Source: a phage
Sequence record: PX290280.1
DNA: 44,859 nt
Direction: 5' to 3' (one strand)
The position numbers and the translations under genes were made by a program. Shown one piece after another: positions 8,758-44,859 of this stretch. Position 1 is the stretch's first letter, and the number at the start of each line of letters is the position of its first letter. The notes under the pieces are model-generated. The model saw only the letters and a program-made list of their open reading frames with translations. It ran no database searches and had not been told where the DNA came from.

Positions 8758-8918
8758 TGGAAATTATTAAACCAGTATTGAATATCGGTATTGAAATCCT
8801 ATTCATGCTTGTGATCGCAGATTATGCTGCACGATATGGATTCAAGAAAGCTGTGAAACTTATCGTTGCATCTGGTTTTATGATGTCAATGTTCTTTATT
8901 GTAACACGCCTTATCTAG
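8757..8918 (+). CDS. Small membrane protein (53 aa, two predicted transmembrane segments)
   Basis: ATG overlaps the primase stop (TAATG); hydrophobic sequence. Confidence 0.45.
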   Translation: MEIIKPVLNIGIEILFMLVIADYAARYGFKKAVKLIVASGFMMSMFFIVTRLI

Positions 8919-8931
8919 TGTATTTATCAGG

Positions 8932-8955
8932 GCTTGTCTCACATGTGAGACAGGC
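8932..8955. repeat. Extended palindrome hairpin (gcttGTCTCACATGTGAGACaggc)
   Basis: Core palindrome plus flanking complementarity, followed by TCTTATT. Confidence 0.8.
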
Positions 8956-8990
8956 TCTTATTAAGTACATTAAATAACTGGAGATTGATT

Positions 8991-9713
8991 ATGTATAAAT
9001 TAGTATTGAATGTAGGTGATTATGTTCGTAACATCAATGAAGCCTCACGTCGTTATCGTTGCCGTGGTGTAGTGGCTCGTGTAAGTGAGAACATGTATCA
9101 TGTAGAATATGATGATGATATTAAGGCTTCTTATCACAAGAAAACCACACATAAATATCTTGAAAAGGTTGTAGAGGTAAACAATCAATGTAAGTGCATA
9201 CATGATGAGGTTTGCGATAAGTGTGCACGTCAGGTAGTTAAAGCCTTTACCTTTGCTCAACGCTATGGTTCTATGTATGGTGCTGGTAACAAGACCCTTG
9301 CAGAAGCAGCTTGGAAGACATTGCAGTTTGAGCGTTCAAATGGACGACGCACCGCACTTAAGAAAGAGCGCCGCAATGTAATCACTGGTAAGACTCAAAG
9401 TGAGATGATTAAGCAATATGGCACTGCATTAGGTGTTACACAGTTCAATACTCGTGCATTGGGTAAATCCACAGGGCAAGCTATGGTGAAAATTGGTGAA
9501 GCTATGATGCACCCAAATGTGCCTGTGCGAATCTTGGATGTTGACCATGCAATCACAGAGCATGGCACACCACGCCGTGTAGCTAACAATCATTTTGCCG
9601 ACACTATAGAAGGTATTATTCTTAAGCAAGGGTTGAAGGGTCTTCACATCTTAAATGGTGAAGAATTACTGTACCTACCTATCGTTACTGAAGAAACATA
9701 CGTGAATATCTAA
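8991..9713 (+). CDS. Hypothetical protein (240 aa) with a Cys cluster
   Basis: ATG 8991 with GGAGA ribosome-binding site (the track's upstream TTG is less likely); CKCIHDEVCDKC motif. Confidence 0.6.
   Translation: MYKLVLNVGDYVRNINEASRRYRCRGVVARVSENMYHVEYDDDIKASYHKKTTHKYLEKVVEVNNQCKCIHDEVCDKCARQVVKAFTFAQRYGSMYGAGNKTLAEAAWKTLQFERSNGRRTALKKERRNVITGKTQSEMIKQYGTALGVTQFNTRALGKSTGQAMVKIGEAMMHPNVPVRILDVDHAITEHGTPRRVANNHFADTIEGIILKQGLKGLHILNGEELLYLPIVTEETYVNI
9592..9614 (+). promoter_or_regulatory. Phage RNAP promoter inside a coding region
   Basis: ATTTTGCCGACACTATAGAAGGT. Confidence 0.55.
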
Positions 9714-9723
9714 GGAGTTAATC

Positions 9724-9942
9724 ATGACTAAGGTATTAATTTATATGCGTGGACCTCATAAATGCTATGCAGTTGTAGCACCTGATGGTGTTAAGCCCTA
9801 TGGTACTTCAAAGGGGTTTGCATTAATAGGTGCCAGTCTTAGTGCAAGTTTTCAGATGGAACTTTTCGGTCATTTGACTGAAAAAGAGTTCCGTGAGGAG
9901 TTTAATGTAATCGGCAGCTTTATGGTGAAACATGCAGAATAA
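9724..9942 (+). CDS. Hypothetical protein (72 aa)
   Basis: AAGGAG ribosome-binding site. Confidence 0.6.
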   Translation: MTKVLIYMRGPHKCYAVVAPDGVKPYGTSKGFALIGASLSASFQMELFGHLTEKEFREEFNVIGSFMVKHAE

Positions 9943-10108
9943 ACATAGTCTTAAAATGTTCGATGGTCATGAAGACCTGCAAGCCAAGATTACTAACCAA
10001 GCCTTCCTGTTCGCACAGTTAACTATGGCTGAAGCAAAGAAGAATAGCCTGACGCGTGAACAGGTTATCAAGGAAAGTGAAGTGAAACGTAAGATTCGCA
10101 GTCGATAA
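9932..10108 (+). CDS. Hypothetical protein (58 aa)
   Basis: Overlaps the previous ORF by 11 nt; GGTGA upstream. Confidence 0.4.
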   Translation: MQNKHSLKMFDGHEDLQAKITNQAFLFAQLTMAEAKKNSLTREQVIKESEVKRKIRSR

Positions 10109-10114
10109 GTCAAG

Positions 10115-10138
10115 GGTTGTCTCACACGTGAGACAGCC
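10115..10138. repeat. Palindrome hairpin variant (ggtTGTCTCACACGTGAGACAgcc)
   Basis: CACGTG centre instead of CATG; followed by TTTCAT. Confidence 0.75.
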
Positions 10139-10165
10139 TTTCATCATATTGATTGGAGGTGCATT

Positions 10166-10273
10166 ATGCCACGTGATTATGATTCTGATTGGGACTACTA
10201 TGACTCAATGAATCCAAAACCCGAACGTTCAGATGATTACTACGAAACAGAGGCAATGTATGAAGACTATTAA
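10166..10273 (+). CDS. Hypothetical small acidic protein (35 aa)
   Basis: Strong GGAGGTG ribosome-binding site; rich in D, Y and E. Confidence 0.45.
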   Translation: MPRDYDSDWDYYDSMNPKPERSDDYYETEAMYEDY

Positions 10274-10478
10274 ATTAAGCAAGGTTTGCTCTTGCGGTAA
10301 AGGTTATCGCAGTCGTATTGATGGCAAGTGTGAAAACTGCCGCACTAAAAGGCAGAAAGATCACAATAATAAATACCACATGCACTTAATGTATCTTGAC
10401 CTTAAAGCTACACCTGATTCTGTATTAGGTAAAAGTCTTAGAGTTAAATACTTTGGAGCAATCTATGAAATCAATTGA
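10260..10478 (+). CDS. Small zinc-finger-like protein (about 72 aa)
   Basis: CSCGKG...CENC motif; GAGG upstream; start taken at ATG 10260 rather than the track's 10233. Confidence 0.5.
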   Translation: MKTIKLSKVCSCGKGYRSRIDGKCENCRTKRQKDHNNKYHMHLMYLDLKATPDSVLGKSLRVKYFGAIYEIN

Positions 10479-12884
10479 TTGGAAGAAGGAAGCAGAAGGT
10501 CGTATCTTAGTAATGGATGCGGAAGCTAAAGGTCTGCTGGATACTATCCGCTACGGTCATCGTGAAGATGTACACATCATTTGCTGCATGGATTTGCTTA
10601 CTACAGAGGAGTTCTTATTCTTTGACCCATATGAGATGCGTGACCCTGAAGCAAGGGAACACCTGAAAGAGTGGGAAGGCCATCAAGATGGAACCTTGGT
10701 TGATGGTGTTAACTTCCTAAAGCACTGTGAAGCCATCGTCTCACAGAACTTCCTAGGGTACGACGGCCTTCTATTTGAGAAAGCATTCCCTGATATCTGG
10801 AAAGGCTTTAACTATACCGAGAGACGCGGCAAGGGCAGACTCCGCGCTGACCTGTGTCCGGTACGCGTCATGGATACGCTGGTCATGAGTCGCCTGTTAA
10901 ACCCCGATAGACGCCTTCCTCCGCAAGCATATGCCAAAGGTATGGGTAACGTCGCCCCTCACTCAATTGAGGCGCACGGCATCCGTATAGGCCGCTATAA
11001 ACCGGAGAACGAGGACTGGTCTAAACTAACTGACCACATGGTTCACCGTGTACGCGAGGACGTGGCGATAGGCCGTGACCTATTCCTCTGGCTATTTAAC
11101 GGAGAATGGACGGAGCACAAACGCCGTGGCGTGAATAAACGCACTGGCCTAGGTATTGAGACAGCCTTCCACATGGAGTCCATTGTGGCGCTGGAGATGA
11201 GCCGTCAGGCCGAGCGTGGATTCCGTCTGGATATAGATAAAGCATTAGCACGATGCGAAGAACTGGACGCTAAGATTGATGAGACAGTCGCAGCGTTCCG
11301 CCCTCACATGCCTATGCGTATCAAGTCTAAACCTTTTAAACCGGAAGAAAAGAATGAAGTATGCCAACGCGCAAATGAGTATGGAGCTAGCAACAATATA
11401 CCTACTGTCCTTGACCCCTCACACTTTCTTCATGCCGAGAGACGAGGAGATCGCAAGACAGTATGGAGTGTCACTACTAAGTCTGGTGATTGGTCGGCTA
11501 GTGTCAAGAAAGACTTTCCTCACCTTAGAGGAAACCGTAATGACACGCCAAGTATCAAGTGGATTGGCGCTTACTCGCCTGTTACTTTCGAAGAGATTCC
11601 CTTGGGTAACAGGGATACAGTTAAGCAAGTGCTCTATGATTATGGATGGAAAGGTGTTGAATTTAACGATACCGAGCAAGCGCATCTGGATGAGTATGGA
11701 GTGTTACCCAAACCTTGGAGTGGGAAGATAAATGAAAAGTCCCTTACTTTATGGCAAGAGAGAGCCGCACGTGAAGGTAAAACAGTCCCTGATTGGTGCT
11801 TGGGTATCGCTGCATGGTACATACTCGTATCCCGTCGTGGTACGATCCTTAACCGTGGTGACGTTGAAGCCTTCGACCAGAAGGGGGTGTGGCCTTCGCA
11901 AGCTGGTGTACGAAAGTGTCGCGGCCTTGTACCTGTAGCATTTAACAAGGAGTTAGGAATCAATGCGCAGCAATACTATGAGAGGTATGGGTGTTGGCCT
12001 ACGTCTGACAAGGATGACGGAGAGTGGCGTGTTCCGGCTGTGATGGTGCTGGTCTTGAACTACGTGTACTATCTCACTTCATGAATGACCCTGAGTATCA
12101 AGATATTGTACTGCATGGTGATATACATACTCATAACCAGATGAAGGCTGGTCTTCCCAAGCGTGATATGGCGAAGACATTTATATATGCCTTCTTATAT
12201 GGGTCTGGTATAGCTAACCTTGCAGCAGTATGCGGTGTTACTGAGGAAGAAATGAAGGAAGTTGTGGCAAGATTTGAGATTGAACTACCTTCCCTTGCAC
12301 GTCTTCGTGAGAATGTTATCGCACAAGGTAACAAGTTTGGCTATCTACAAGCACCTGATGGGCATTGGGGTCGCATCCGTATGTCTGGTGGTGAACTTAA
12401 AGAGCACACTATGCTTAACGTACTACTCCAGATGACTGGCTCTCTGTGTATGAAATACGCATTGGTCAGAGCGTTTGCAGTGATGCGCAAGGAGGGTGTG
12501 GCTCTAGATAGCATGGGTAACCCTTGCGGTGTAGCTAACGTGCACGATGAAATCCAGATGGAAGTACCTGAAGATGAGGTCTTGTATCTCAACTACGACT
12601 TGCCTTTCACCGTAGAAGGGTTCGAAACAGAGAAGGCTGCTGTGAAAGCAGTGTTCGATGCAGAGGAGAAACGTGTTCATGTGGATTCTGAAGGACGTAT
12701 GTGGTCTGCTGCAAATCTCGTTAGCGTTGATGCTGATGCTGGTGTACTTCATTGCCAGCGTCGTTATCACCGTGCAGGGCATATCATTGCCGATGCAATG
12801 ACTTGGGCTGGTCATTATTTGAAGATGCGTTGTCCGATGGCAGGTGAGTATAAGATTGGTGCAAGCTGGAAGGAAACACACTGA
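10465..12884 (+). CDS. DNA polymerase (family A, T7 gp5-like), interrupted by an apparent -1 frameshift near 12042
   Basis: The first frame reaches ...GEWRVPAV and stops at 12084. The next frame carries motif A DGAGLELRVLSHFM, motif B KTFIYAFLYGSG and motif C VHDEIQ, matching T7 DNAP as recalled. Re-reading G12042 joins them into one polypeptide. Confidence 0.85.
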
Positions 12885-13000
12885 TGGACAGGTTTGATGT
12901 TGTTTGCCTATTCTCTATCTTCTTTCTTATATTCCTTATGCTTGCTTGCTATGGAAGTATACGATTAGATATACCTGATGAAGAGGAGGGTTACGATTGA
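12884..13000 (+). CDS. Small hydrophobic peptide (38 aa)
   Basis: ATG overlaps the DNAP stop (TGATG); one predicted transmembrane helix. Confidence 0.4.
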   Translation: MDRFDVVCLFSIFFLIFLMLACYGSIRLDIPDEEEGYD

Positions 13001-13098
13001 TGCAAACTTCTTTTATCATTCTTGGGATCATATTATTTATGGTAGTATTCTGGGCTTTCTCTGGCATTGACCCAGATTGTGATGGTAACTACGACTGA
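13000..13098 (+). CDS. Small hydrophobic peptide (32 aa)
   Basis: ATG overlaps the previous stop (TGATG); one predicted transmembrane helix. Confidence 0.4.
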   Translation: MQTSFIILGIILFMVVFWAFSGIDPDCDGNYD

Positions 13099-13156
13099 GT
13101 TATACTCAAGGTCACTTACGAGTGGCCTTTATGAATAACTTAACTAAGGAAATATT

Positions 13157-13417
13157 ATGATTAAATATACTGCTTATCAGTTAACTAAAGACCGTAAGAT
13201 AGGTATTGAGGTTAAGGCTTGGGAGCGAGGTCATATCTCTGGAGTAATAGAGGTGCGTTCCAACGAAGGTATGATGATTAGAAGACACTTTAGTTTCGCT
13301 AAATCTACTTGTAAGCATTTAACAGAGGAACAATTCTTACATCATATTATTAATAATATTAAAGCTATCCAGCCTTATGCCAAGCAAGTTGTAGGTAATG
13401 TCACAGTAGTACATTGA
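13157..13417 (+). CDS. Hypothetical protein (86 aa)
   Basis: AAGGA ribosome-binding site; ORF track entry. Confidence 0.6.
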   Translation: MIKYTAYQLTKDRKIGIEVKAWERGHISGVIEVRSNEGMMIRRHFSFAKSTCKHLTEEQFLHHIINNIKAIQPYAKQVVGNVTVVH

Positions 13418-13439
13418 TTTACTGGACACTATAGAAGGA
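13417..13439 (+). promoter_or_regulatory. Phage RNAP promoter (consensus copy)
   Basis: ATTTACTGGACACTATAGAAGGA. Confidence 0.8.
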
Positions 13440-13502
13440 AAGCCTAGACAATCTAGGTTTATAAGGTAGTATAGGTAATTAAGTAAATATAGGAGATAAA
13501 AC

Positions 13503-13880
13503 ATGTCTATGGTAACTACTCTGGTATTTGTAGCTCAATACTTTCGTGGTCTGGCTAATAAGTTCAAGTCCAAGGCTATCAAAGCTATTGAGTCTCGCAT
13601 CGAGGCAGTACAGGCAGAGCAAGTTAAAGTTGAAGAACATCGTAGTTCTCAAATGATTGACTGCCATAACCGCTACTATGTGTCTCGTGATGACCTTAAT
13701 GCACGCCAAGTCAAAGAGGTTGAAGATATGATGGCACGTCACCAGCAAGAGCGTGACAGCCTGAAAGCTGAATTTGAAGAGAACAAGGCATCCATTGCTC
13801 GGGTACACCAAGCTGCATCTGACAGTCTGAAGAAAGAGATTGTTATGCTGGAAATAGAACTGGATAACCTGACCAAATAA
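13503..13880 (+). CDS. Hypothetical coiled-coil protein (125 aa)
   Basis: AGGAG ribosome-binding site; charged, helical sequence. Confidence 0.65.
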   Translation: MSMVTTLVFVAQYFRGLANKFKSKAIKAIESRIEAVQAEQVKVEEHRSSQMIDCHNRYYVSRDDLNARQVKEVEDMMARHQQERDSLKAEFEENKASIARVHQAASDSLKKEIVMLEIELDNLTK

Positions 13881-13886
13881 GGAGTT

Positions 13887-14186
13887 ATGATGGAAGAAGT
13901 AATTCAAGCTAAACATGTAGGTATTATCTTTCGTGATCTAGAGCAGCGTAAAGTAGCAGGTCATATTCGTCTGGCTAAAGAGGAAGACACCGCAATCACT
14001 ACTGTAGAACAAGCAGATGCCTATCGTGGTCCAGAGTTTACTCAAGGTGAAACTTGTCATCAATTGAGCCTTTCACTTTGTGACACTATGGCTAGTGTAA
14101 ATGTACAAGAGGTTGAAGATGGTGAATGTGTTAGTTATGTCTACCCTCTCGATACTATTGCACGTATTAAGGTAGTTCATAAGTAA
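13887..14186 (+). CDS. Hypothetical protein (99 aa)
   Basis: AGGAG ribosome-binding site. Confidence 0.65.
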   Translation: MMEEVIQAKHVGIIFRDLEQRKVAGHIRLAKEEDTAITTVEQADAYRGPEFTQGETCHQLSLSLCDTMASVNVQEVEDGECVSYVYPLDTIARIKVVHK

Positions 14187-14207
14187 TTACTGGACACTAT
14201 AGAACAA
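14185..14207 (+). promoter_or_regulatory. Phage RNAP promoter
   Basis: AATTACTGGACACTATAGAACAA. Confidence 0.75.
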
Positions 14208-14263
14208 TAGGTCGGCTTAGTTCGGCCTATGATTGTGTAGTGTAACAATAGGAGACTAAATAA

Positions 14264-15070
14264 ATGGCACGTGGTGATTTTGATTTTGGTGCTCAGGTTA
14301 CTAAAGCTGAAGGTAAAGTATTTAAGAACCCTGAAGTTGGTGATCATGAAGCAGTAATCTCTGGCATCATTCATGTTGGTTCCTTCCAAGACATCTTTAA
14401 GAAAGGTAATACCACTGAAGTTAAGAAGCCAGCAAACTTTGTTCTTGTTAAGATTATCCTGATGGGTGACGACGATAAGAATGAAGACGATTCTCGCATG
14501 GAACAATGGATGGCTGTGCCTCTGAAGTCTGGTGATAAGGCAACACTGACTAAGTTCCTGAATGCAGTTGACCCTAAAGAGTTGCTGGGTGGCTTCGATG
14601 ATTTTATCGGTGAATGTCTGACTGCAACTATGGTTGGCTCTGGCGACAAGAATGATGATGGTACTTTCAAGTATGTTAACTGGAAAGGCTTTGGCGGTAC
14701 GCCTGATAAGTTGAAGAAGCTTGTACTGGCTCAGGTAGAAGAGGAAGGTCTGTCTATGACAGGTCATATCACCTTCGACAAGCTGACCAAAGAAATCCTT
14801 GATGACATCCCAGCTAACTTGGTACGTCAATACTTCCTGAATGAGACACCTCGTGGTAAGAACCTGTCTGTTGCTGGCTCTCACGTAGAAGCTATTATCA
14901 AAGCTGCTCGTGAAGAAGACCCTGAATGGAAGAAGGCTAAGAAGAAAGACGAGGAAGATGCTACCCCAGCTAATCGTAAATCTCTGGATACTGGTGAGTC
15001 TGTTCCACAGGAAGTACCTGAAGCAGAAGATACTCCTGCACCGGAGATGGATGAGGACGCGGAATATTAA
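14264..15070 (+). CDS. Abundant DNA-metabolism protein with an acidic C-terminal tail; possible single-stranded DNA-binding protein
   Basis: 268 aa, codon usage of a highly expressed gene, C-terminus PEMDEDAEY; sits directly downstream of a phage promoter. The function is inferred and not motif-proven. Confidence 0.4.
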   Translation: MARGDFDFGAQVTKAEGKVFKNPEVGDHEAVISGIIHVGSFQDIFKKGNTTEVKKPANFVLVKIILMGDDDKNEDDSRMEQWMAVPLKSGDKATLTKFLNAVDPKELLGGFDDFIGECLTATMVGSGDKNDDGTFKYVNWKGFGGTPDKLKKLVLAQVEEEGLSMTGHITFDKLTKEILDDIPANLVRQYFLNETPRGKNLSVAGSHVEAIIKAAREEDPEWKKAKKKDEEDATPANRKSLDTGESVPQEVPEAEDTPAPEMDEDAEY

Positions 15071-15079
15071 GGAGAAAGG

Positions 15080-15298
15080 ATGAAAGTACAAATCGTAACC
15101 CTGCACTGCAAGAAAGGAATTACAACTCTTGGCGGCAACACTTTTCACTCCTTCTCTGAAGGGGACACATATGCCGACCTGCACTACATCTGGCGCGACG
15201 GACAGCACGTGGTGAACTACAGCGACCCAGCTACGGGGAAACGCCACGGCGTATCGCTTCCGGCGCATGACATTGCTCAGGTGAACACAGTTTTATAA
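15080..15298 (+). CDS. Hypothetical protein (72 aa)
   Basis: AAGGAG ribosome-binding site. Confidence 0.6.
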   Translation: MKVQIVTLHCKKGITTLGGNTFHSFSEGDTYADLHYIWRDGQHVVNYSDPATGKRHGVSLPAHDIAQVNTVL

Positions 15299-15299
15299 A

Positions 15300-15315
15300 G
15301 TCTCACGTGTGAGAC
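15300..15315. repeat. Palindrome variant (GTCTCACGTGTGAGAC)
   Basis: Stem GTCTCAC / GTGAGAC, located between a stop codon and the promoter at 15331. Confidence 0.7.
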
Positions 15316-15330
15316 AAGTCGGTGTCTGGT

Positions 15331-15353
15331 ATTTACTGGACACTATAGAAGAG
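15331..15353 (+). promoter_or_regulatory. Phage RNAP promoter
   Basis: ATTTACTGGACACTATAGAAGAG. Confidence 0.8.
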
Positions 15354-15403
15354 AAGAATTTTAATCGGCGATAATGCCATAACCAACAAAAGGAGAATTT
15401 AAT

Positions 15404-15775
15404 ATGTTCAAGATTGAAACTATCGTAAACCGTGTTGTTAAAGGTGCTGCTCTGGTATCCGTTGAGTCTTTCATTATCGTCGATGAAGCTGATCAACTGG
15501 TAGCTGGTACTAAGGCTTACGATACCCGTGAAGAAGCTCAGGCTAAGATTGACAGCATGGGTAACTTCGCTGCTGGTCTGGAGTTCGCTCGTGCTTGCTT
15601 CCCTGAGCAGGCTGACAAAGCTCAGATTGGTAAGGCTAATATCGTAGCTGAATATCTGGATTGGGTTGCTGCTGGTAAACCAGTGAAAGAAGTTAAAGCT
15701 GCTGAAGAAGCTGAAGCTCCGGCAGTAGAAGTGTCTGCACCGGAAGCTCCGGTTAGCGAAGAGGAAGAGTTTTGA
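15404..15775 (+). CDS. Hypothetical abundant protein (123 aa) with an acidic C-terminus ending EEEEF
   Basis: AAGGAG ribosome-binding site, strong codon bias, followed by a terminator-like hairpin. Confidence 0.65.
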   Translation: MFKIETIVNRVVKGAALVSVESFIIVDEADQLVAGTKAYDTREEAQAKIDSMGNFAAGLEFARACFPEQADKAQIGKANIVAEYLDWVAAGKPVKEVKAAEEAEAPAVEVSAPEAPVSEEEEF

Positions 15776-15833
15776 TAATAGCAGGTGTTTCCTCTGTTAG
15801 TCCTAGTTGACTATCACGCTCACCTCATCTAAT

Positions 15834-15867
15834 GCCCTGTCTGCCTTAGTGTAGGCAGGGTCTTTTG
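15834..15867 (+). terminator. Candidate terminator hairpin
   Basis: gccctgtctgcc-ttagtgt-aggcaggg followed by TCTTTTG. Confidence 0.5.
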
Positions 15868-15892
15868 CGTAATAGTTATTGGAGAATGAATT

Positions 15893-16198
15893 ATGCCGAC
15901 TATTAGATCTCGTTTAGTAGCAGACTATGTTTATGGTCGTGACTTAAAGTTAATGCAAGATTATTTTAAAGTAATTATCTTGCTGGATGGAGAGGTATTT
16001 CACACTAAAACATTCACCTTACCCGAGTTGTTTGATTTAGGTTATTGGGGTTATACTTATCAGGCCATAGCAGACAAGGTGCTACTCAGTGTGTTAGAGG
16101 AGTGGCCTACATGCGACCAAACTTCGACTTCGGAGCTACAGTATCGGAGGACAATAATCTCATCCTGTGGCCGACTGAAGGTAATAGAATCGCTTTAA
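15893..16198 (+). CDS. Hypothetical protein (up to 101 aa)
   Basis: GGAGA ribosome-binding site; the 3' part overlaps the exonuclease gene in another frame, so the true end is uncertain. Confidence 0.4.
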   Translation: MPTIRSRLVADYVYGRDLKLMQDYFKVIILLDGEVFHTKTFTLPELFDLGYWGYTYQAIADKVLLSVLEEWPTCDQTSTSELQYRRTIISSCGRLKVIESL

Positions 16199-17139
16199 TA
16201 GATGCTGATATGCTACCCTACATCGTAGGTTATACAATCAGTGACATGACTTATGTACGAGCCACAACTCGTGTTAAGTCAGGACAAGTCACATCAATCA
16301 AAGATACACCTGAGTGTAAGCAGGCGTGTGACCGTGTGAACTCATTGCTCAACTCTTGGGTGTATGCAGCAGAGTGTGATGCAGCTAAGTTATTCATGAC
16401 GAAATCAGAAGCAAACTTCCGTGTCCGCCTAGCATTCACCAAACCTTATAAGGGTCAACGTAAGACAGAGAAGCCTCCATTCTTCTATGAATTGCGAGAG
16501 CATCTCTTAGGGGTTCATGGTGCAATCTTAGCAGATGGAGAGGAAGCAGACGACCTCATGAGTATCGCACAATGGGATAGCCACCGCCGCTTCCAGCAAG
16601 ATACAGGTAACGAGTTTCCTATTGGTAGTCCAGAGCATAAAGCATTCTCTGATACTTGCATCGTTTCCTTGGATAAGGATTTGATGATTGTTCCTGGTTG
16701 GCATCTACAGCCGGGTCAAGAGAAGAAATGGGTAGAGCCTATGGGCTGGCTTGAGTTACGCCGCAAAGCTAATGGTCAAGTCAAAGACCTAAAAGGTGCT
16801 GGCCTTATGTTCCATTATGCACAGATGATTATCGGTGATGATATTGATAACTATGCTGGCATACCTGGTCGTGGTGCTAAATATGCCTATGATCTTCTCA
16901 AAGGTTGTAAGACAGAGAAAGAATTGTACATGGCAGTGCTTGGTGCTTACAAAGCTAAGTTCGGCCATGGACAGGTTAAGATTAAGAATTACCGAGGTGG
17001 TTATCGGGTTGGCAAAGCCTTTGACCTTATGCTTGAATGCGGTCGCTTAGCTCACATGGCTAGGTTCAAAGGTGATATATGGCGAGCCGATAAGAGCCCA
17101 ATCTTGTGGGGAGATGATGCTGAATGGTTAGCAAATTAA
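16110..17139 (+). CDS. 5'-3' exonuclease (T7 gp6-like, FEN family)
   Basis: Acidic active-site blocks IALIDADM, ADGEEADD, SLDKDL and IGDDIDNYAGIPG parallel T7 gene 6 as recalled; start taken at ATG 16110. Confidence 0.8.
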
Positions 17140-17537
17140 AAGCATCGGAGGTGGCAGCTTATAAGAAGGAATTGCTAGATAAGCAAGGATGGAAATGCCT
17201 TCTGTGTGGTGGCAGTCTCAAAGCTGTCACACCTGTAAACCGTGTACTTGACCATGACCATGAGACAGGATTCTGCCGTGCTGTTGTATGCCGAGGTTGC
17301 AATGGTGCGGAAGGGAAGATTAAGGGTGTTATCTCCGGTTATGGCAAGGCGGGTAATAACCGTTACTTCCAGCTTCAATGGTTAGAGAGATTGTATGAAT
17401 ACTGGAAGTTACATAGTACGCCTCAGACAGATAAGTTATACCACAAACATCAAACGGAGGCAGAGAAGCGCGAGGCTAAGAACCGTAAGGCACGCCTTGC
17501 TTATGCAAGAAAGAAGAAGGAGGTTAAAGTTGGGTAA
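17124..17537 (+). CDS. Endonuclease VII-type Holliday junction resolvase
   Basis: CLLCGG...DHDHETGFCRAVVCRGCN motif typical of the T4 endonuclease VII / HNH family. Confidence 0.75.
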   Translation: MVSKLKASEVAAYKKELLDKQGWKCLLCGGSLKAVTPVNRVLDHDHETGFCRAVVCRGCNGAEGKIKGVISGYGKAGNNRYFQLQWLERLYEYWKLHSTPQTDKLYHKHQTEAEKREAKNRKARLAYARKKKEVKVG

Positions 17538-18537
17538 GCTTCGCAGCTTGTACAAAGACTCCGAGGTACTTGATGCAATCGAGCAAGCTACCGACGAGAA
17601 AGGTAATGTTAACTACAACGAGATGGCACGGGTATTATCGTGTCACCCTGTGGGTAAGAAGATTACCCGCCAGTTGGCTCGATACTGGCATGGTCAATTC
17701 AAGAAGACCAAGAAGAATGGTGATTACTACCAGACTCTTCTGCAAGAGGATAAGCGTATCAAAGAGGAGCGTAAGCTCAGGACTCCTGACCGCTACGAGG
17801 ATTTGGCTATTGTACCATTGCCTGACTCGCCTCATCGAAGTGTACTGGTAATCCCTGACACTCATGCACCTTATGAGCACCCAGATACCTTAGAGTTTCT
17901 GGCAGTGGTGGCAGCACGTTACCATCCAGACACTGTAGTTCATCTGGGTGATGAGGCAGATAAACATGCCTTATCGTTCCACGATTCAGACCCCAATCTG
18001 GATAGTGCTGGCATGGAGTTAGAGAAGGCCCGTGTCTTTATGCATAAATTACACAAGATGTTTCCTGTGATGCGCCTGTGTCATTCTAATCACGGCTCTA
18101 TGCACTTCCGTAAGGCAAGCGCCAAAGGTATTCCAGTGCAATATCTTCGTACATACCGTGAAGTCTTCTTCCCAAATGGAGGTGGCGACCAGTGGGATTG
18201 GCAACATACACACGTACTTGAGTTGCCGAATGGTGAACAGGTTGCATTTAAGCATCAACCCGCAGGCTCAGTATTAGCAGATGCAGCGCATGAGCGCATG
18301 AACTTAGTGTGCGGTCACTTGCATGGTAAGATGTCGGTGGAGTATGCACGTAACACACATGAGCAGTATTGGGCTGTGCAGGGCGGCTGTCTGATTGATG
18401 AGTCATCTCGTGCATTTGCCTATGGTCGTGAGTCCAAATACAAGCCAGCATTAGGTTGTGTGGTTATTCTGGAGGGTGTGCCGCACATTGTCCCGATGCA
18501 GACCAATAGTGACAATCGCTGGATTGGTAAGATTTAG
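17530..18537 (+). CDS. Calcineurin-like metallophosphoesterase
   Basis: Start TTG 17530, 6 nt after AAGGAGG. Motifs IPDTHAPY (D-x-H), HLGDEAD (GD-x-x-D), HSNHG (GNH-like) and CGHLHG (GH-x-H). Confidence 0.75.
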   Translation: MGKLRSLYKDSEVLDAIEQATDEKGNVNYNEMARVLSCHPVGKKITRQLARYWHGQFKKTKKNGDYYQTLLQEDKRIKEERKLRTPDRYEDLAIVPLPDSPHRSVLVIPDTHAPYEHPDTLEFLAVVAARYHPDTVVHLGDEADKHALSFHDSDPNLDSAGMELEKARVFMHKLHKMFPVMRLCHSNHGSMHFRKASAKGIPVQYLRTYREVFFPNGGGDQWDWQHTHVLELPNGEQVAFKHQPAGSVLADAAHERMNLVCGHLHGKMSVEYARNTHEQYWAVQGGCLIDESSRAFAYGRESKYKPALGCVVILEGVPHIVPMQTNSDNRWIGKI

Positions 18538-18555
18538 TTGACACTATAGAACAAA
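18533..18555 (+). promoter_or_regulatory. Phage RNAP promoter, SP6-like variant (ATTTAGTTGACACTATAGAACAA)
   Basis: The copy closest to the SP6 consensus. Confidence 0.7.
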
Positions 18556-18604
18556 GGGCAGGTATTAGCTTGCCCTTGATTGTATAGTGAATGGAGGAAT
18601 GAAT

Positions 18605-19144
18605 ATGTCACACTATGTATGTAAGAAATGCCACAATCGCTATGATAATTGCACCTGTGATTACAGTAAAGATGGAAAGATTAAAGCAGGCGATTATGTT
18701 GTACGACGTGAAAATTATCGGAACTTAGATTGGCTTAAGGTGTGTAACAAATTAGGTAAGAAGCCTGATTCAGTTTTCAAAGTTATAAATGACGAATCGG
18801 TTGGTAGCGCCATTATGCTTGAAGGTATAGAAAAGAGAGAATGGTATGCACCTTACTTTGAGCAAGTAGCTACTCCTCCAGTTTTATCTGAGTCCAACAT
18901 GTTGGACAACAATATGGTTACTAAGCCTAAACACTACGAGTTCTTCGAAGGTGTAGAAGTAATCACTGTCATTGCCCGTAGCATGACAGAGAAGCAATTC
19001 GCTGGTTATTGCATGGGTAACGCTTTGAAATATCGTCTGCGTGCAGGTAAGAAATTCAACACTGAAGAAGATCTGAAGAAAGCAGACTACTACAAAGAGC
19101 TATTCCAGAAGCATCGTCACGAATGTATTGATGAGGATATTTAA
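18605..19144 (+). CDS. Conserved phage protein with an N-terminal Cys-rich zinc-binding motif
   Basis: CKKCHNRYDNCTC at the N-terminus; C-terminal block HYEFFEGVEVI...GNALKYRLRAGKK...DLKKADYY looks like a widespread phage domain; GGAGG ribosome-binding site. Confidence 0.6.
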   Translation: MSHYVCKKCHNRYDNCTCDYSKDGKIKAGDYVVRRENYRNLDWLKVCNKLGKKPDSVFKVINDESVGSAIMLEGIEKREWYAPYFEQVATPPVLSESNMLDNNMVTKPKHYEFFEGVEVITVIARSMTEKQFAGYCMGNALKYRLRAGKKFNTEEDLKKADYYKELFQKHRHECIDEDI

Positions 19145-19145
19145 T

Positions 19146-19262
19146 ATGACTTGTCCTAATTGTGGAAGTGAAGAAACAGAACATGTAGTTATGTCAGATA
19201 CTTATCATTTCTACTTCTGTCATAGCTGCGACACCACCATTGAAGAGGAAGAAGTTGTATGA
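19146..19262 (+). CDS. Zinc-ribbon mini-protein (38 aa)
   Basis: CPNCG...CHSCD; overlaps the ligase start. Confidence 0.4.
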   Translation: MTCPNCGSEETEHVVMSDTYHFYFCHSCDTTIEEEEVV

Positions 19263-20206
19263 ATATCTTTGAGTTCCTAGGTCTTCCAGAAGACCACCGC
19301 AATCACCCATTCATGTTGGTGAAACATCGCGGTGAAGTTCCTGAGAAGAAATTAACTTTTCCATGTTATGCACAGGTAAAACGAGATGGTATCTTTTCTG
19401 CTGTTGTTGTTCGCACTGATGGTGTCGTTGGCATTTTTGGTCGCACTGGTAAGAAACTGGCAAACACTGAAGTGCTCGAACAAACCTTTGCTACCTTTCC
19501 GGTTGGCATTTATCTTGGTGAGCTTCAGTCTATGGCCTTTGATATCTACCTTGAGGCACTCTCTGGGGTGGTGAACCCAAATCGCACAGAGCCACTTGAT
19601 TTCATAGGCCAGCAGATTAAAGATAACCTGTATATTGACTTCTTCGATATGTTAACCGTTAAGGCATTCCATGATGGATTCACTGATGTTTCTTATCTCA
19701 AACGTTACGATGCTTTACATCGTCGCATCGGCACTCATCTTAGCGGGTACAACGCTATCCTTCCTATTACTCCTTGCCATAATGAGCGAGAAGTTGAAGC
19801 GTTTGCGCAAGAGCAAATAGACGCAGGCCGAGAGGGTGCTGTGTTTAAACTGGACTGTGATTATGAAGCAGGCCACAAAGGTTATCGTCAGACTAAAGAA
19901 GTCCGTAAGGTAACTTATGACCTTACTTGTATTGGCTTTGAAGAAGGTAAAGGCAAGTACAAAGGTAAGGTAGCTAACCTCATTTTCAAATGGAAAGGGG
20001 GCAAGACAATCAAAGCTATGTTAGGTAAAGGGTGGACTCATGCAGATGCAGAACAGATGTTCCACGATATTAAACATGGTGGACGATTGAATGTCATTGG
20101 TAAAATCTTTGAAGTAAAAGGTCTTCAGGATTCAAGCAAGGGCAACATTCGTCTGCCCAAAGCGGGAGAATTAAGACATGACAAAGATGAACCAGATTTC
20201 TTTTGA
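19259..20206 (+). CDS. ATP-dependent DNA ligase
   Basis: Motif I VKRDG (lysine adenylation site), motif V EGAVFK and a Lys-rich C-terminal region, as in T7 gene 1.3. Confidence 0.85.
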   Translation: MNIFEFLGLPEDHRNHPFMLVKHRGEVPEKKLTFPCYAQVKRDGIFSAVVVRTDGVVGIFGRTGKKLANTEVLEQTFATFPVGIYLGELQSMAFDIYLEALSGVVNPNRTEPLDFIGQQIKDNLYIDFFDMLTVKAFHDGFTDVSYLKRYDALHRRIGTHLSGYNAILPITPCHNEREVEAFAQEQIDAGREGAVFKLDCDYEAGHKGYRQTKEVRKVTYDLTCIGFEEGKGKYKGKVANLIFKWKGGKTIKAMLGKGWTHADAEQMFHDIKHGGRLNVIGKIFEVKGLQDSSKGNIRLPKAGELRHDKDEPDFF

Positions 20207-36366: not shown

Positions 36367-36649
36367 ACATGCAGCTACAGAGGACGAGGTTGGCATTCTG
36401 CATGGTGCTATTACCAAAATCTTCAATAAGAAAGCACAGGCAATACTGGACACTATAGAAGAAGACCCTGATGCAGCATTACATTTAGTGTCTGGTAAGG
36501 ATATTGGTGCGATGTGTAAGTGGGTTCTTGATAACGGCATTACCGCCACACCTGCTGCACAGCAGGAAGAGTCCAAGTTATCTAAGCGCCTCAAGGCTAT
36601 CCGAGAGGCATCCAGTGGTAAGATAATTCAATTCACTAAGGAGGATTGA
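36350..36649 (+). CDS. Terminase small subunit
   Basis: GTG start 4-5 nt after GGAGGGA; position directly upstream of the large subunit. Confidence 0.55.
   Translation: MSVHNKHAATEDEVGILHGAITKIFNKKAQAILDTIEEDPDAALHLVSGKDIGAMCKWVLDNGITATPAAQQEESKLSKRLKAIREASSGKIIQFTKED
36441..36463 (+). promoter_or_regulatory. Partial phage promoter inside the terminase small-subunit gene
   Basis: CAATACTGGACACTATAGAAGAA: core conserved, upstream ATTTA missing. Confidence 0.45.
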
Positions 36650-38547
36650 TGGCTAAGGCAAGAGAATCACAAGCGGAGGCTCTTGCCAGATGGGAGATGC
36701 TACAGGAGTTACAGCAGACCTTTCCTTACACAGCGGAAGGTTTGCTTCTCTTTGCAGATACAGTTATTCATAACTTAATTGCAGGCAACCCTCATCTGAT
36801 TCGTATGCAGGCGGATATCTTGAAGTTCCTATTTTACGGACACAAGTACCGCCTCATCGAAGCGCCTCGTGGTATCGCTAAGACAACACTATCAGCAATC
36901 TATACGGTATTCCGTATTATTCATGAACCGCATAAGCGTATCATGGTTGTGTCCCAAAACGCCAAGCGAGCAGAGGAAATCGCAGGTTGGGTAGTTAAAA
37001 TCTTCCGTGGCTTAGACTTTCTTGAGTTTATGCTGCCGGATATCTACGCTGGGGACCGTGCATCCGTTAAGGCGTTTGAGATTCATTACACCCTACGTGG
37101 TAGTGATAAGTCTCCTTCTGTATCCTGTTACTCAATCGAAGCAGGTATGCAGGGTGCTCGTGCTGATATTATTCTAGCGGATGACGTAGAGTCGATGCAG
37201 AATGCTCGTACGGCAGCGGGCCGTGCCTTGCTTGAGGAACTGACTAAGGAGTTTGAATCTATCAACCAGTTTGGGGATATCATTTACCTTGGTACACCTC
37301 AGAACGTAAACTCTATCTACAACAACCTACCTGCTCGTGGTTACTCTGTTCGTATCTGGACTGCGCGTTACCCTTCAGTAGAGCAAGAGCAATGTTATGG
37401 CGACTTCCTTGCACCTATGATTGTTCAAGATATGAAGGACAACCCAGCACTTCGCTCAGGGTACGGGTTGGATGGTAATAGTGGTGCACCTTGTGCCCCT
37501 GAAATGTATGATGATGAAGTCCTGATTGAGAAGGAAATCTCTCAGGGTGCTGCTAAGTTCCAGCTTCAGTTCATGCTTAACACTCGCATGATGGATGCTG
37601 ACAGATACCCATTACGCCTGAACAATCTAATCTTCACCTCGTTTGGTACAGAGGAAGTCCCTGTGATGCCTACGTGGAGTAATGATTCCATAAACATCAT
37701 TGGTGATGCACCTAAGTATGGTAACAAGCCTACGGATTTCATGTACAGACCTGTAGCTCGCCCATACGAATGGGGTGCTGTCTCCCGCAAGATTATGTAT
37801 ATTGACCCTGCGGGTGGTGGTAAGAACGGAGATGAGACGGGTGTAGCCATCGTATTCCTGCACGGCACATTCATTTATGTGTATCAGTGCTTTGGTGTAC
37901 CTGGCGGATACCGAGAGTCGTCCCTGAATCGCATTGTGCAGGCCGCAAAGCAGGCGGGTGTTAAAGAGGTATTCATTGAGAAGAACTTTGGTCATGGCGC
38001 GTTTGAGGCGGTAATTAAGCCGTACTTTGAACGAGAGTGGCCTGTAACTCTGGAAGAGGATTACGCCACCGGACAGAAAGAGTTGCGTATCATTGAGACG
38101 CTGGAGCCGCTCATGGCAGCCCATAGGCTTATCTTCAATGCAGAGATGGTGAAGTCAGACTTTGAGTCGGTACAGCACTATCCGCTTGAACTACGCATGT
38201 CCTACAGTCTTTTCAATCAAATGTCGAACATAACGATTGAGAAGAACAGCCTCCGGCACGATGACCGCCTAGACGCCCTGTATGGCGCTATACGGCAATT
38301 AACTTCTCAGATAGACTATGACGAGGTTACACGGATTAATCGCCTCAGAGCGCAGGAGATGCGCGATTACATCCATGCTATGAACACACCTCATCTACGC
38401 AGGGCAATGCTATATGGAGATTACGGTACTGAGCGAAGAGTGACCAACACTTCCGTAGCGATGCAGCAGCGAGTTTACGGGCAGAACTACCGAAATAAAT
38501 CGGCAAGCAGAAATACACTTTCTGCAAGGATTTCAAGGACTTATTAA
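36649..38547 (+). CDS. Terminase large subunit
   Basis: 633 aa; Walker A-like EAPRGIAKTT; AAGGAGG ribosome-binding site; synteny. Confidence 0.85.
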   Translation: MAKARESQAEALARWEMLQELQQTFPYTAEGLLLFADTVIHNLIAGNPHLIRMQADILKFLFYGHKYRLIEAPRGIAKTTLSAIYTVFRIIHEPHKRIMVVSQNAKRAEEIAGWVVKIFRGLDFLEFMLPDIYAGDRASVKAFEIHYTLRGSDKSPSVSCYSIEAGMQGARADIILADDVESMQNARTAAGRALLEELTKEFESINQFGDIIYLGTPQNVNSIYNNLPARGYSVRIWTARYPSVEQEQCYGDFLAPMIVQDMKDNPALRSGYGLDGNSGAPCAPEMYDDEVLIEKEISQGAAKFQLQFMLNTRMMDADRYPLRLNNLIFTSFGTEEVPVMPTWSNDSINIIGDAPKYGNKPTDFMYRPVARPYEWGAVSRKIMYIDPAGGGKNGDETGVAIVFLHGTFIYVYQCFGVPGGYRESSLNRIVQAAKQAGVKEVFIEKNFGHGAFEAVIKPYFEREWPVTLEEDYATGQKELRIIETLEPLMAAHRLIFNAEMVKSDFESVQHYPLELRMSYSLFNQMSNITIEKNSLRHDDRLDALYGAIRQLTSQIDYDEVTRINRLRAQEMRDYIHAMNTPHLRRAMLYGDYGTERRVTNTSVAMQQRVYGQNYRNKSASRNTLSARISRTY

Positions 38548-40249: not shown

Positions 40250-40326
40250 GGAAGAGTGCCGTTCAAATGAACGGCCTATTACTAGCCAATCTTCATAGGG
40301 AGGGTTGGGAAGTAATAGGAGGTTTA

Positions 40327-41766
40327 ATGGCTAATATTACCAAACCTGTCACAACTGGTATTATACATGAAGGAAGGCTGCTATCAGATTATCTAAAACA
40401 AGCATGGGATAACACCTTACACGCTGATAACTACTTTGTTAGTGTTAAAGACTTTGGCGCTAAGGGTGATGGCTCTGCTGATGATACTGCTGCATTCAAA
40501 GCTGCACTTGCTTCTGGTAAGAATGTATATATCCCTGTAGGTATTTATATAATTAGTGAGACTTTGTATTTTAAGAATCAGGTTATAAAAGGGGGCGGAA
40601 TAGCACCTATTCCGAGTCTTGGTACAATACTTGCAATCTCACACAGTGAGCCTGCATTGAAATATGATGTAAGTGCAGGTTACTCTATGGGTGGTTATTT
40701 AGGTGGGTTCTTCATAGATTATGGAGAGAACAAACCAGATAACTATGCAGGCAGAAAAGGCATAGATCTAGGTGATGCCGACCAACAAGCATGGCCTTCT
40801 CAATTTATCATTGAGAACATCATTGTCCGTGGTGCATACTTTGGTTTGCATGATGAAACAGGAGCATTCCAATACTCAATGCGCAATGTGGTTGCTATCA
40901 ATTGCTGGGAGGGGTTCCGTAAGTTCACTGGAACTACAGTCCTTATGGATACATGCTATGCGCTTAATTGCTATCAAGCATATAGACTGGCTAATGTTTA
41001 TAATATGACAATGAATAACTGCGCCATGGATGGATGCAATGATATCCAAGGTTTACAGGCATTTGATATTACAAACTGCAAAGGTCTTGTGATAAATGGC
41101 ATGTATAGTGAGAATTGTGAGATCCATCATAGTGGTAATGCTTCTATATTTATTCATGGAGATTCTACAGTAACAATCAACGGTTATGCCTTACACTCGC
41201 ATAATGTCGTTGTTGATCCATCATCTGGAAGTGAAGAAGCATACTTTCTTAGAGCGCACGACAGCTCTAGGGTCAATGTAGATGGAATCTTCTTCGGTGA
41301 GAACCTTAAATCTACTAGTATCTTCACCTACCCAATTATGGCCTCTGGTGAGTCTAGAATTAAGCTAGGAACTACAGCACTTAAGGCATGGGTAGGTGCT
41401 AAGGGTGGTGCATCTATGGCTGCTGTTGGAGATAGTCTCATTGAATATGACAATACCGTATTTAACCCATCACTTACTGCAGGTTGGTGCAGTAATAATG
41501 GTGTTGTAGCTAAAGGGACACTAGTTGTAAACACAACATTAGAACCTAATGCAGATTTAAATGCAGGAACTATACAATTAGTTGGTGACTATAAACCAAA
41601 TAAAGGTGATGTTCTTACATATGGTTCTACTTTCGATGTTCAATCATGTGCTATTATTCTGAAGCCACAAGGTGATAATAGTTGTAATGTTTACATTAAA
41701 AACCTAAGTGCAGGTAGTAGTGTTACACTTAACGGAATATTGCACGTACAGGCAATTCGTAGGTAA
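40327..41766 (+). CDS. Tailspike 1: beta-helix polysaccharide depolymerase-like
   Basis: ATG 40327 with AGGAGG ribosome-binding site; VKDFGAKGDGSADDTAAFKAAL signature of pectate-lyase-type beta-helix proteins; no T7 gp17 N-terminal domain. Confidence 0.75.
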   Translation: MANITKPVTTGIIHEGRLLSDYLKQAWDNTLHADNYFVSVKDFGAKGDGSADDTAAFKAALASGKNVYIPVGIYIISETLYFKNQVIKGGGIAPIPSLGTILAISHSEPALKYDVSAGYSMGGYLGGFFIDYGENKPDNYAGRKGIDLGDADQQAWPSQFIIENIIVRGAYFGLHDETGAFQYSMRNVVAINCWEGFRKFTGTTVLMDTCYALNCYQAYRLANVYNMTMNNCAMDGCNDIQGLQAFDITNCKGLVINGMYSENCEIHHSGNASIFIHGDSTVTINGYALHSHNVVVDPSSGSEEAYFLRAHDSSRVNVDGIFFGENLKSTSIFTYPIMASGESRIKLGTTALKAWVGAKGGASMAAVGDSLIEYDNTVFNPSLTAGWCSNNGVVAKGTLVVNTTLEPNADLNAGTIQLVGDYKPNKGDVLTYGSTFDVQSCAIILKPQGDNSCNVYIKNLSAGSSVTLNGILHVQAIRR

Positions 41767-41850: not shown

Positions 41851-44286
41851 ATGATTCAAAGACTAGGTTCTTCATTAGTTAAATTCAAGAGTAAAATAGC
41901 AGGTGCAATCTGGCGTAACTTGGATGACAAGCTCACCGAGGTTGTATCGCTTAAAGATTTTGGAGCCAAAGGTGATGGTAAGACAAACGACCAAGATGCA
42001 GTAAATGCAGCGATGGCTTCAGGTAAGAGAATTGACGGTGCTGGTGCTACTTACAAAGTATCATCTTTACCTGATATGGAGCGATTCTATAACACCCGCT
42101 TCGTATGGGAACGTTTAGCAGGTCAACCTCTTTACTATGTGAGTAAAGGTTTTATCAATGGTGAACTCTATAAAATCACGGACAACCCTTATTACAATGC
42201 TTGGCCTCAAGACAAGGCGTTTGTATATGAGAATGTGATATATGCACCCTACATGGGTAGCGACCGTCATGGTGTTAGTCGTCTGCATGTATCATGGGTT
42301 AAGTCTGGTGACGATGGTCAAACATGGTCTACTCCAGAGTGGTTAACTGATCTGCATCCAGATTACCCTACAGTGAACTATCATTGTATGAGTATGGGTG
42401 TATGTCGCAACCGTCTGTTTGCCATGATTGAAACACGTACTTTAGCCAAGAACGAACTAACCAATTGTGCATTGTGGGATCGTCCTATGTCTCGTAGTCT
42501 GCACCTTACTGGTGGTATCACTAAAGCTGCAAATCAGAGATATGCAACAATCCATGTACCTGATCACGGACTATTCGTGGGCGATTTTGTTAACTTCTCT
42601 AATTCTGCGGTAACAGGTGTATCAGGTGATATGACTGTTGCAACGGTAATAGATAAGGACAACTTCACGGTCCTTACACCTAACCAGCAGACTTCAGATT
42701 TGAATAACGCTGGAAAGAGTTGGCACATGGGTACTTCTTTCCATAAGTCTCCATGGCGTAAGACAGATCTTGGTCTAATCCCTAGTGTCACAGAGGTGCA
42801 TAGCTTTGCTACTATTGATAACAATGGCTTTGTTATGGGCTATCATCAAGGTGATGTAGCTCCACGAGAAGTTGGTCTTTTCTACTTCCCTGATGCTTTC
42901 AATAGCCCATCTAATTATGTTCGTCGTCAGATACCATCTGAGTATGAACCAGATGCGTCAGAGCCATGCATCAAGTACTATGACGGTGTATTATACCTTA
43001 TCACTCGTGGCACTCGTGGTGACAGACTTGGAAGCTCTTTGCATCGTAGTAGAGATATAGGTCAGACTTGGGAGTCACTGAGATTTCCACATAATGTTCA
43101 TCATACTACCTTACCTTTTGCTAAAGTAGGAGATGACCTTATTATGTTTGGTTCAGAACGTGCAGAAAATGAATGGGAAGCAGGTGCACCAGATGATCGT
43201 TACAAGGCATCTTATCCTCGTACCTTCTATGCACGATTGAATGTAAACAATTGGAATGCAGATGATATTGAATGGGTTAACATCACAGACCAAATCTATC
43301 AAGGTGACATTGTGAACTCTAGTGTAGGTGTAGGTTCTGTTGTAGTTAAAGACAGCTACATTTACTATATCTTTGGTGGTGAAAACCATTTCAACCCAAT
43401 GACTTATGGTGACAACAAAGATAAAGACCCATTTAAAGGTCATGGACACCCTACTGATATATACTGCTATAAGATGCAGATTGCAAATGACAATCGTGTA
43501 TCTCGTAAGTTTACATATGGTGCAACTCCTGGTCAAGCTATACCTACTTTCATGGGTACTGATGGGATACGAAATATCCCTGCACCTTTGTATTTCTCAG
43601 ATAACATTGTTACAGAGGATACTAAAGTTGGACACTTAACAATTAAAGCAAGCACAAGTTCCAATATACGATCTGAAGCGCAGATGGAAGGTGAATATGG
43701 CTTTATTGGCAAGTCTGTTCCAAAGGATAACCCAACTGGTCAACGTTTGATTATTTGTGGTGGAGAAGCGACTTCGTCCTCTTCAGGTGCACAGATAACT
43801 TTGCACGGCTCTAATTCAAGTAATGCTAATCGTATCACTTATAACGGAAATGAGCACCTATTCCAAGGTGCACCAATCATGCCTGCTGTAGATAACCAGT
43901 TTGCTGCTGGTGGACCTAGTAACCGATTCACTACCATATACCTAGGTAGTGACCCTGTTACCACTTCAGATGCTGAACACAAGTACGGTATCTCTAGTAT
44001 TAATACCAAGGTGTTAAAGGCTTGGAGTAGAGTTGGTTTTAAACAGTATGGTTTGAATAGTGAAGCAGAGAGAAGTCTTGATAGCATACACTTCGGTGTC
44101 TTGGCTCAGGATATTGTAGCTGCTTTTGAAGCTGAAGGGTTAGATGCCATTAAGTATGGAATTATGTCATTCGAAGAAGGTAGGTACGGTGTGAGGTATA
44201 GTGAAGTTCTAATCCTAGAGGCTGCCTACACTCGCCATCGTCTTGATAAATTAGAGGAGATGTATGCCGCTAATAAAATCAGTTAA
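41851..44286 (+). CDS. Tailspike 2: endosialidase-like, with a C-terminal intramolecular chaperone domain
   Basis: 811 aa; two sialidase Asp-boxes SGDDGQTW and SRDIGQTW; C-terminal about 105 aa with an S-D junction typical of self-cleaving chaperone domains. Confidence 0.75.
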   Translation: MIQRLGSSLVKFKSKIAGAIWRNLDDKLTEVVSLKDFGAKGDGKTNDQDAVNAAMASGKRIDGAGATYKVSSLPDMERFYNTRFVWERLAGQPLYYVSKGFINGELYKITDNPYYNAWPQDKAFVYENVIYAPYMGSDRHGVSRLHVSWVKSGDDGQTWSTPEWLTDLHPDYPTVNYHCMSMGVCRNRLFAMIETRTLAKNELTNCALWDRPMSRSLHLTGGITKAANQRYATIHVPDHGLFVGDFVNFSNSAVTGVSGDMTVATVIDKDNFTVLTPNQQTSDLNNAGKSWHMGTSFHKSPWRKTDLGLIPSVTEVHSFATIDNNGFVMGYHQGDVAPREVGLFYFPDAFNSPSNYVRRQIPSEYEPDASEPCIKYYDGVLYLITRGTRGDRLGSSLHRSRDIGQTWESLRFPHNVHHTTLPFAKVGDDLIMFGSERAENEWEAGAPDDRYKASYPRTFYARLNVNNWNADDIEWVNITDQIYQGDIVNSSVGVGSVVVKDSYIYYIFGGENHFNPMTYGDNKDKDPFKGHGHPTDIYCYKMQIANDNRVSRKFTYGATPGQAIPTFMGTDGIRNIPAPLYFSDNIVTEDTKVGHLTIKASTSSNIRSEAQMEGEYGFIGKSVPKDNPTGQRLIICGGEATSSSSGAQITLHGSNSSNANRITYNGNEHLFQGAPIMPAVDNQFAAGGPSNRFTTIYLGSDPVTTSDAEHKYGISSINTKVLKAWSRVGFKQYGLNSEAERSLDSIHFGVLAQDIVAAFEAEGLDAIKYGIMSFEEGRYGVRYSEVLILEAAYTRHRLDKLEEMYAANKIS

Positions 44287-44419: not shown

Positions 44420-44859
44420 TAATATCTTAGTGTACACAAGGGCAGACCTAGGTTTGCTCTTAGTGTAATCCAAGGAGGTAACATGCAAGAGGGGAATTGG
44501 GATGTGTAATGTTGGATATGGAGAAGGTTGAACCTTAGTGTTGTACAAGGATTAACCAAAGTCAAAATTTTGATATAGGCGTGTGTGAGGTGTCTCGCCC
44601 TCGCCCTCGCCGGATTTCCCCCATATGGGGCCGCGCTGCGGTTGGCTTGGGAATTGGGCTAGGCTGGTCCGTCTTCGACGGGTGGCCTAGGGCTTGCCGA
44701 AGTCTGCTCTTAGTGGCTGCACAAGGAGAACGCCTAGGAAGCGCTAGGGCACGCCTTAGTATTGGACAAGGTGATTGCCTTAGCGCAACCGCTTAGGGCT
44801 TACACAGGCCGTTTTAGGGCCATTCCTGAGCATTTGACAGGGTGAGCGTGGGTGGGCTA
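44420..44859. repeat. Right-end repeat region, GC-rich, probably part of the terminal repeat
   Basis: Reiterated CTTAGTG-N(6-9)-CAAGG units; 44438-44454 is identical to 6549-6565; GC content clearly above the genome average. Confidence 0.55.

Follow-up and report, generated by a model that had tools for sequence, protein, structure and literature searches.

A 127-nucleotide gap before motif A in the DNA polymerase gene of a K1E-like phage genome, probably an artefact of assembly

The DNA polymerase gene of the phage genome analysed here is broken between two reading frames immediately before the first of its catalytic motifs, which raises the question of whether this interruption is a sequencing or assembly error, a recoding or splitting of the enzyme, or a genuine lesion in the phage. 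The window, i.e. the whole 44,859-nt stretch of DNA that was analysed, is a complete K1E/K1-5-like coliphage genome (Autographiviridae, Molineuxvirinae, Vectrevirus) that is colinear over its whole length with K1E (NC_007637). In place of a single uninterrupted frame of some 848 codons, its homologue of K1E gene 13 occupies two frames, 10465-12084 and 12018-12884, both on the + strand, as defined by the list of open reading frames (ORFs) and by tblastn with K1E gp13. The frame-1 ORF runs from ATG 10465 (it is listed from TTG 10453) to a stop codon at 12082-12084, and frame 3 is open from 12018, the position that follows the TGA at 12015-12017, to 12884. Residues 1-530 of K1E gp13 match frame 1, and residues 567-848 match frame 3, in both cases at 98% identity. 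The authentic codons of the 5' part are 1-524, up to 12035/12036; the final 16 codons of the frame-1 ORF (AVMVLVLNYVYYLTS and the stop, 12037-12084) are an out-of-frame read-through of the DNA that encodes motif A. The 3' part proper (12036-12884, + strand) corresponds to residues 567-848 of the intact protein and contains all three motifs of a family A polymerase with their catalytic aspartates, i.e. motif A (DGAGLELR, 12042-12065), motif B (KTFIYAFLYG, 12174-12203) and motif C (VHDEIQ, 12540-12557), all in frame 3. Within the same gene, long alternative-frame ORFs at 11276-11731 and 11732-11938 (both +) are counterparts of those annotated in K1E as 13.1 and 13.2; these, and an antisense ORF of 363 aa (14177-15268, - strand) that lies opposite genes 16-17, are probably non-coding chance ORFs.

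The initial annotation had described this arrangement, with frame 1 ending at 12084 and a second frame that opens at 12018 and bears motifs A, B and C, and the sequence and ORF list bear that description out. Re-reading G12042 does, as it had stated, give the continuous ...WRVPAV-DGAGLELR, and the two open frames, which overlap by 67 nt (12018-12084, + strand), are joined by a -1 shift at any point within that interval. Its remark that no classical slippery heptamer is present also holds, since a search of 12016-12084 found neither an X XXY YYZ heptamer nor a homopolymer of at least 4 nt. Upstream of motif A the sole start codon in frame 3 is GTG 12024, and a GGAG lies only 1 nt from it, a spacing too short for a functional ribosome-binding site. 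A tblastn search with the K1E proteins revealed no second polymerase gene in the window.

The alignment against DNA polymerase genes of SP6-type phages that the initial annotation had proposed proved to be the informative step, in that it exposes a gap of 127 nt. A megablast search of 50,697 phage records with 10453-12884 as the query matched 113, of which 40 were listed; all 40 of those listed align in two pieces, which together span 2559 nt of the record and 2432 nt of the window, and they include PhiNW-E1, the polymerase gene of which is 99.9% identical. Further close relatives were obtained by exact-protein look-ups with the primase, gp15 and the portal protein, through which the Logan contig ERR13996023_18460 was retrieved. 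This contig is 99.85-99.87% identical to the window over 8935-19880 and encodes an intact 848-aa polymerase, and its sole indel against the window over that interval is the same 127 nt. Alignments with K1E, PhiNW-E1 and the Logan contig each place a clean gap between 12035 and 12036, where the window (+ strand) reads ..GTGTTCC/GGCTGTG.. and the relatives carry 127 nt (AGCTATTGCT...GCTAATCCTC); the full segment, placed after 12035, is AGCTATTGCTATTAGTATTGGTACTTCTACGTTCCGTATGCGTCATCGTAACGTGGTTAATATTCCTGCCCGTGGCTTGTATCCTTTACGTGATTTATTCATAGCAGGTAAAGGTAAGCTAATCCTC. In all of these alignments the difference is 127 nt, rather than the one base by which relatives should differ from the window had a single nucleotide been lost. 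The segment was not found elsewhere in the window, to which it has only random matches of 10-11 nt.

The missing DNA comprises 42 codons and one further nucleotide, and encodes AIAISIGTSTFRMRHRNVVNIPARGLYPLRDLFIAGKGKLIL (residues 525-566). The peptide is identical in all 16 related loci that were compared, and all ten variable DNA columns are third codon positions, indicating that the segment is protein-coding sequence under purifying selection and not an intron or spacer. A distant blastn search, for which the query was 331 nt with the segment at its centre, found 159 phage records that cover at least 80% of the query, and relatives in Proteus, Klebsiella and Aeromonas phages, among the matches listed, are aligned in one piece. 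All neighbours of the window that were examined have 848-aa polymerases encoded by a single ORF, and the 90%-identity cluster of the Logan relative's polymerase has 542 members, with 11 of the 15 listed being 848 aa long. Re-insertion of the 127 nt into the window restores a protein of 848 aa with 100% identity to the DNA polymerase of the Logan relative; the two genes differ by two synonymous changes in 2547 nt.

The position of these residues within the polymerase fold could be assigned by two approaches. The Pfam family PF00476 matches the intact relative over model positions 119-349; in the window the downstream frame matches only positions 158-349 (E-value 6e-19) and the upstream ORF has no match, so that the missing stretch corresponds approximately to positions 119-157. 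The 52-aa region by itself had no match in a sequence search of the PDB, and the segment was accordingly mapped onto the T7 gene 5 protein by MAFFT. In this alignment the missing residues lie opposite T7 residues ~419-472, just before the catalytic Asp475 of motif A, with R536, H539, N541 and I545-P546 of the window-type protein aligned with T7 R429, H432, N436 and I440-P441. The palm segment that precedes motif A (T-x-R...H..N..IP, T7 R429-P441) is thus absent from the window, and most of the T7 stretch (...TGRATHAFPNLAQIPGVRSPYGEQCRAAFGAEHHLDGITGKPWVQAGIDASGLELR) has no counterpart there; the claim that the joined WRVPAV-DGAGLELR matches T7 DNA polymerase therefore fails. We take the missing element to be the conserved T-G-R...P-N-x-Q-N-I-P, which touches the minor groove of the primer-template in T7 and Klenow/Taq structures. 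Because these 42 invariant residues of the palm domain are missing, the protein obtained by correcting 1 nt or by a -1 frameshift would have ~806 aa and be without part of its core. With 42 invariant residues removed, the frame shifted and no other polymerase gene found, the 127-nt lesion should be lethal.

The remainder of the genome gives a very different picture. A tblastn search with 59 K1E proteins found 56 in the window, with no counterpart for gp5, gp46 or the endonuclease gp40.5; the proteins that were found, with the exception of gp13, each align in one frame over their full or nearly full length, and by this measure the gene content of the window is that of K1E plus one tailspike. 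A generally poor assembly is ruled out by this one-frame alignment of the other matched K1E proteins, and by the finding that the nearest relative has no other indel over 11 kb. The large terminase of the window is one uninterrupted ORF of 632 aa (36649-38547); that of K1E is annotated as 40A, the homing endonuclease 40.5 and 40B, with ~750 nt inserted at the counterpart of 37815/37816. The additional tailspike-like gene (499 aa, 40267-41766, + strand) adjoins the endosialidase tailspike at 41851-44286, a dual arrangement that is K1-5-like and that K1E does not have. Its product contains a pectate-lyase-like beta-helix (PF12708) and has an N-terminus similar to residues 21-61 of gp47, the K1E endosialidase; the exact 499-aa protein had no match in the public protein collection. 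A 70-aa gene 2.5 homologue (1327-1536) is shared by the window and K1E and is missing from the Logan contig, a small difference in gene presence between near-identical genomes. The genome is a mosaic, with the polymerase region (9940-13142) being 99.7-99.9% identical to PhiNW-E1 and most other regions 88-96%; this mosaicism, together with the ~99.9% identity to the Logan contig over the parts of it that were retrieved, suggests that co-circulating K1 phages have recently recombined.

The ends of the window show how it was handled. Its right end is exactly the K1E-type right terminus, its left end lies ~20 nt past the expected end of the left repeat, and the terminal repeat (288 bp, exact, in K1E) is present as a single copy at 44593-44859, at the right end, with no terminal duplicate in the window. 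These features together indicate that the window was opened or re-oriented in silico after assembly, and it follows that a seam at which the sequence was cut and rejoined must lie somewhere within it. The length of the gap is likewise suggestive: 127 is the largest possible k-mer size of SPAdes, and SPAdes leaves overlapping sequence at the ends of contigs that needs to be removed, both as described in the Unicycler paper (PMC5481147). The paper describing PhiNW-E1 concerns three K1 phages, and these were assembled by Unicycler.

Accordingly, the reading that we favour, with a probability of about 70%, is that the polymerase break is an in-silico artefact of assembly, circularisation or re-orientation, in which 127 bp were lost. 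An otherwise flawless, re-oriented genome, a near-homology-free loss within the sole polymerase gene found and a length equal to k make a processing artefact the most economical explanation. In the specific route envisaged, the terminally redundant genome would have been assembled as a de Bruijn-graph contig by SPAdes or Unicycler, with a maximum k of 127, and this contig would close on itself through a k-length overlap at an arbitrary point. If one round of trimming too many had been applied to that overlap, or if both ends had been trimmed, and the circle had only then been re-opened at the genome terminus, gene 13 would contain a seam that is short by exactly k bases. We infer that the original contig had its seam at the gap and that the assembler was run with k = 127, a route to which we give roughly even odds; the rest of the probability of an in-silico origin falls to other joins, e.g. 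two contigs abutted without Ns. The case resembles a k-mer terminal overlap of SPAdes in its length of exactly 127 nt, its clean and near-homology-free junction, its arbitrary site and the flawless genome re-opened at its terminus, but differs in that such errors usually leave k bases in duplicate, whereas here k bases are lost, which needs their removal twice or from both ends. The agreement between 127 and the SPAdes maximum could also be a coincidence. If the artefact reading is correct, the actual phage would possess a normal, single-ORF family A DNA polymerase of 848 aa, with no recoding.

Of the explanations that leave the polymerase functional, the one that the initial annotation had preferred, i.e. 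a 1-nt sequencing or assembly error near 12042 that one added base would correct to the authentic gene, draws on the fact that a -1 shift within 12018-12084 joins the two open frames; it is refuted by the alignments, in which the relatives differ by 127 nt and not by one, and by the joined product, which would still be without 42 invariant residues (PF00476 positions ~119-157), and we give it practically no chance. The general suspicion of an artefact rather than a real recoding was nevertheless probably right, and it is the diagnosis of a single nucleotide that was wrong. Programmed -1 ribosomal frameshifting, or a polymerase split into two pieces, that gives a functional enzyme is hardly more credible. 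The 67-nt overlap and the intact motifs A-C downstream are in its favour, and known examples of programmed -1 frameshifting, dnaX and T7 gene 10A/10B, likewise have a pair of frames that overlap and are offset by a -1 shift. Direct tests contradict both forms of this idea, however: the overlap contains no slippery heptamer or homopolymer, the two-frame arrangement occurs in no relative examined (the neighbours having 848-aa single ORFs), the essential segment before motif A is missing from both pieces, so that even a fused product would be incomplete, and the only frame-3 start before motif A, GTG 12024, has its GGAG too close. Moreover, where the polymerase gene of this clade is naturally interrupted, the interruption is an insertion and not a deletion. 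Introns and homing endonucleases are reported, by Bonocora and Shub, to interrupt the DNA polymerase genes of T7-like phages, and a related Vectrevirus, MZ997839.1, has what looks like an insertion of this type: its polymerase is annotated in two parts, of 625 aa and 210 aa, that are separated by an ORF of 127 aa, and a 597-nt insertion (8867-9463) lies inside motif B (AKTF/IYAFLYG) and contains this ORF (8964-9347), which has an HNH-like motif (AHLDRINPKLGYIKGNVAWISGRANR). Searches of this insertion against Rfam found no family at the gathering threshold, and the 127-aa ORF had no Pfam match. The window shares with MZ997839.1 the annotation of two polymerase ORFs, but in the latter all of the coding sequence is kept on either side of an inserted element; in the window coding sequence is lost before motif A, nothing is inserted, and the two parts are not complete exons. 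Set against the family to which it belongs, the SP6-type family A polymerases of K1E (gp13) and K1-5 (848 aa, relatives of T7 gene 5), the broken gene has motifs A, B and C and 98% identity to K1E gp13 over residues 1-524 and 567-848, and differs in the loss of residues 525-566 and the shift in frame.

A real 127-bp deletion in packaged DNA, the remaining explanation, would require a replication-defective (defective-interfering or cheater) genome abundant enough to become the consensus, arising by illegitimate recombination and spreading at high multiplicity, with wild-type phage in the same cells providing the polymerase in trans. The deletion is present in the sequence as it stands, both halves of the gene are otherwise pristine, as would fit a very recent event, and the same consensus would be obtained from a high-titre lysate in which a real deletion variant predominated. 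T7-group phages are generally known to produce spontaneous deletions, and their deletion mutants and defective genomes resemble the window in having a small internal deletion in an otherwise wild-type genome. Known viable deletions in this group, on the other hand, affect non-essential genes and usually lie between direct repeats of several bp; that in the window destroys the only polymerase gene found, with the consequence that such a genome could not be clonally propagated, and its junction is of another kind. In the nearest relatives the left breakpoint is TTCC/AGCT and the right CCTC/GGCT, and the window has TTCC/GGCT, so that only 1 nt (C) is shared at the crossover and no several-bp direct repeat has been reduced to one copy. 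An imperfect repeat, C[A/G]GCT, does flank both breakpoints and speaks for a natural event, but the retained base (G) puts the crossover outside the GCT repeat, leaving a true microhomology of just 1 nt. No hairpin or inverted repeat that could explain polymerase jumping was found: the single-stranded DNA fold of the region was not significant (z = -1.5), the ends being unpaired and the breakpoints not brought together. Nor does the deletion appear in any other public contig searched (IMG/VR, metagenome and genome collections): the junction pattern had no match in IMG/VR, its 32 metagenome and 42 genome matches were chance ones of no more than 35 nt in unrelated, mostly alphaproteobacterial DNA, and the broken N- and C-terminal polymerase products were absent from a collection of 15 billion proteins. 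Finally, the genome is shortened by just 0.3%, with no obvious replication or packaging advantage over its helper, and the length of the deletion coincides with an assembler constant. On balance we regard a real deletion as unlikely, and more doubtful still is the fuller proposal that the stock is dominated by a polymerase-null Vectrevirus genome, which would then be a cheater or defective-interfering genome of natural origin in a podovirus of the SP6/K1E type.

The most likely reading is therefore that the break in the polymerase gene is not a real biological feature, and the chief value of the finding is in quality control, in that no frameshifted, split or recoded polymerase should be annotated for this record. 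Adding a single base as a 'fix' would produce a spurious 806-aa polymerase with an incomplete core, and the gene should instead be repaired by restoring the 127 nt, once the reads have been checked. The case also illustrates that a frame break judged on one sequence alone can conceal far more extensive damage, and that a SPAdes/Unicycler seam should be suspected when a re-oriented phage genome has an indel of exactly 127 bp. Were the deletion nonetheless real, the phage would exemplify a defective genome that depends on a helper, a case of modest interest.
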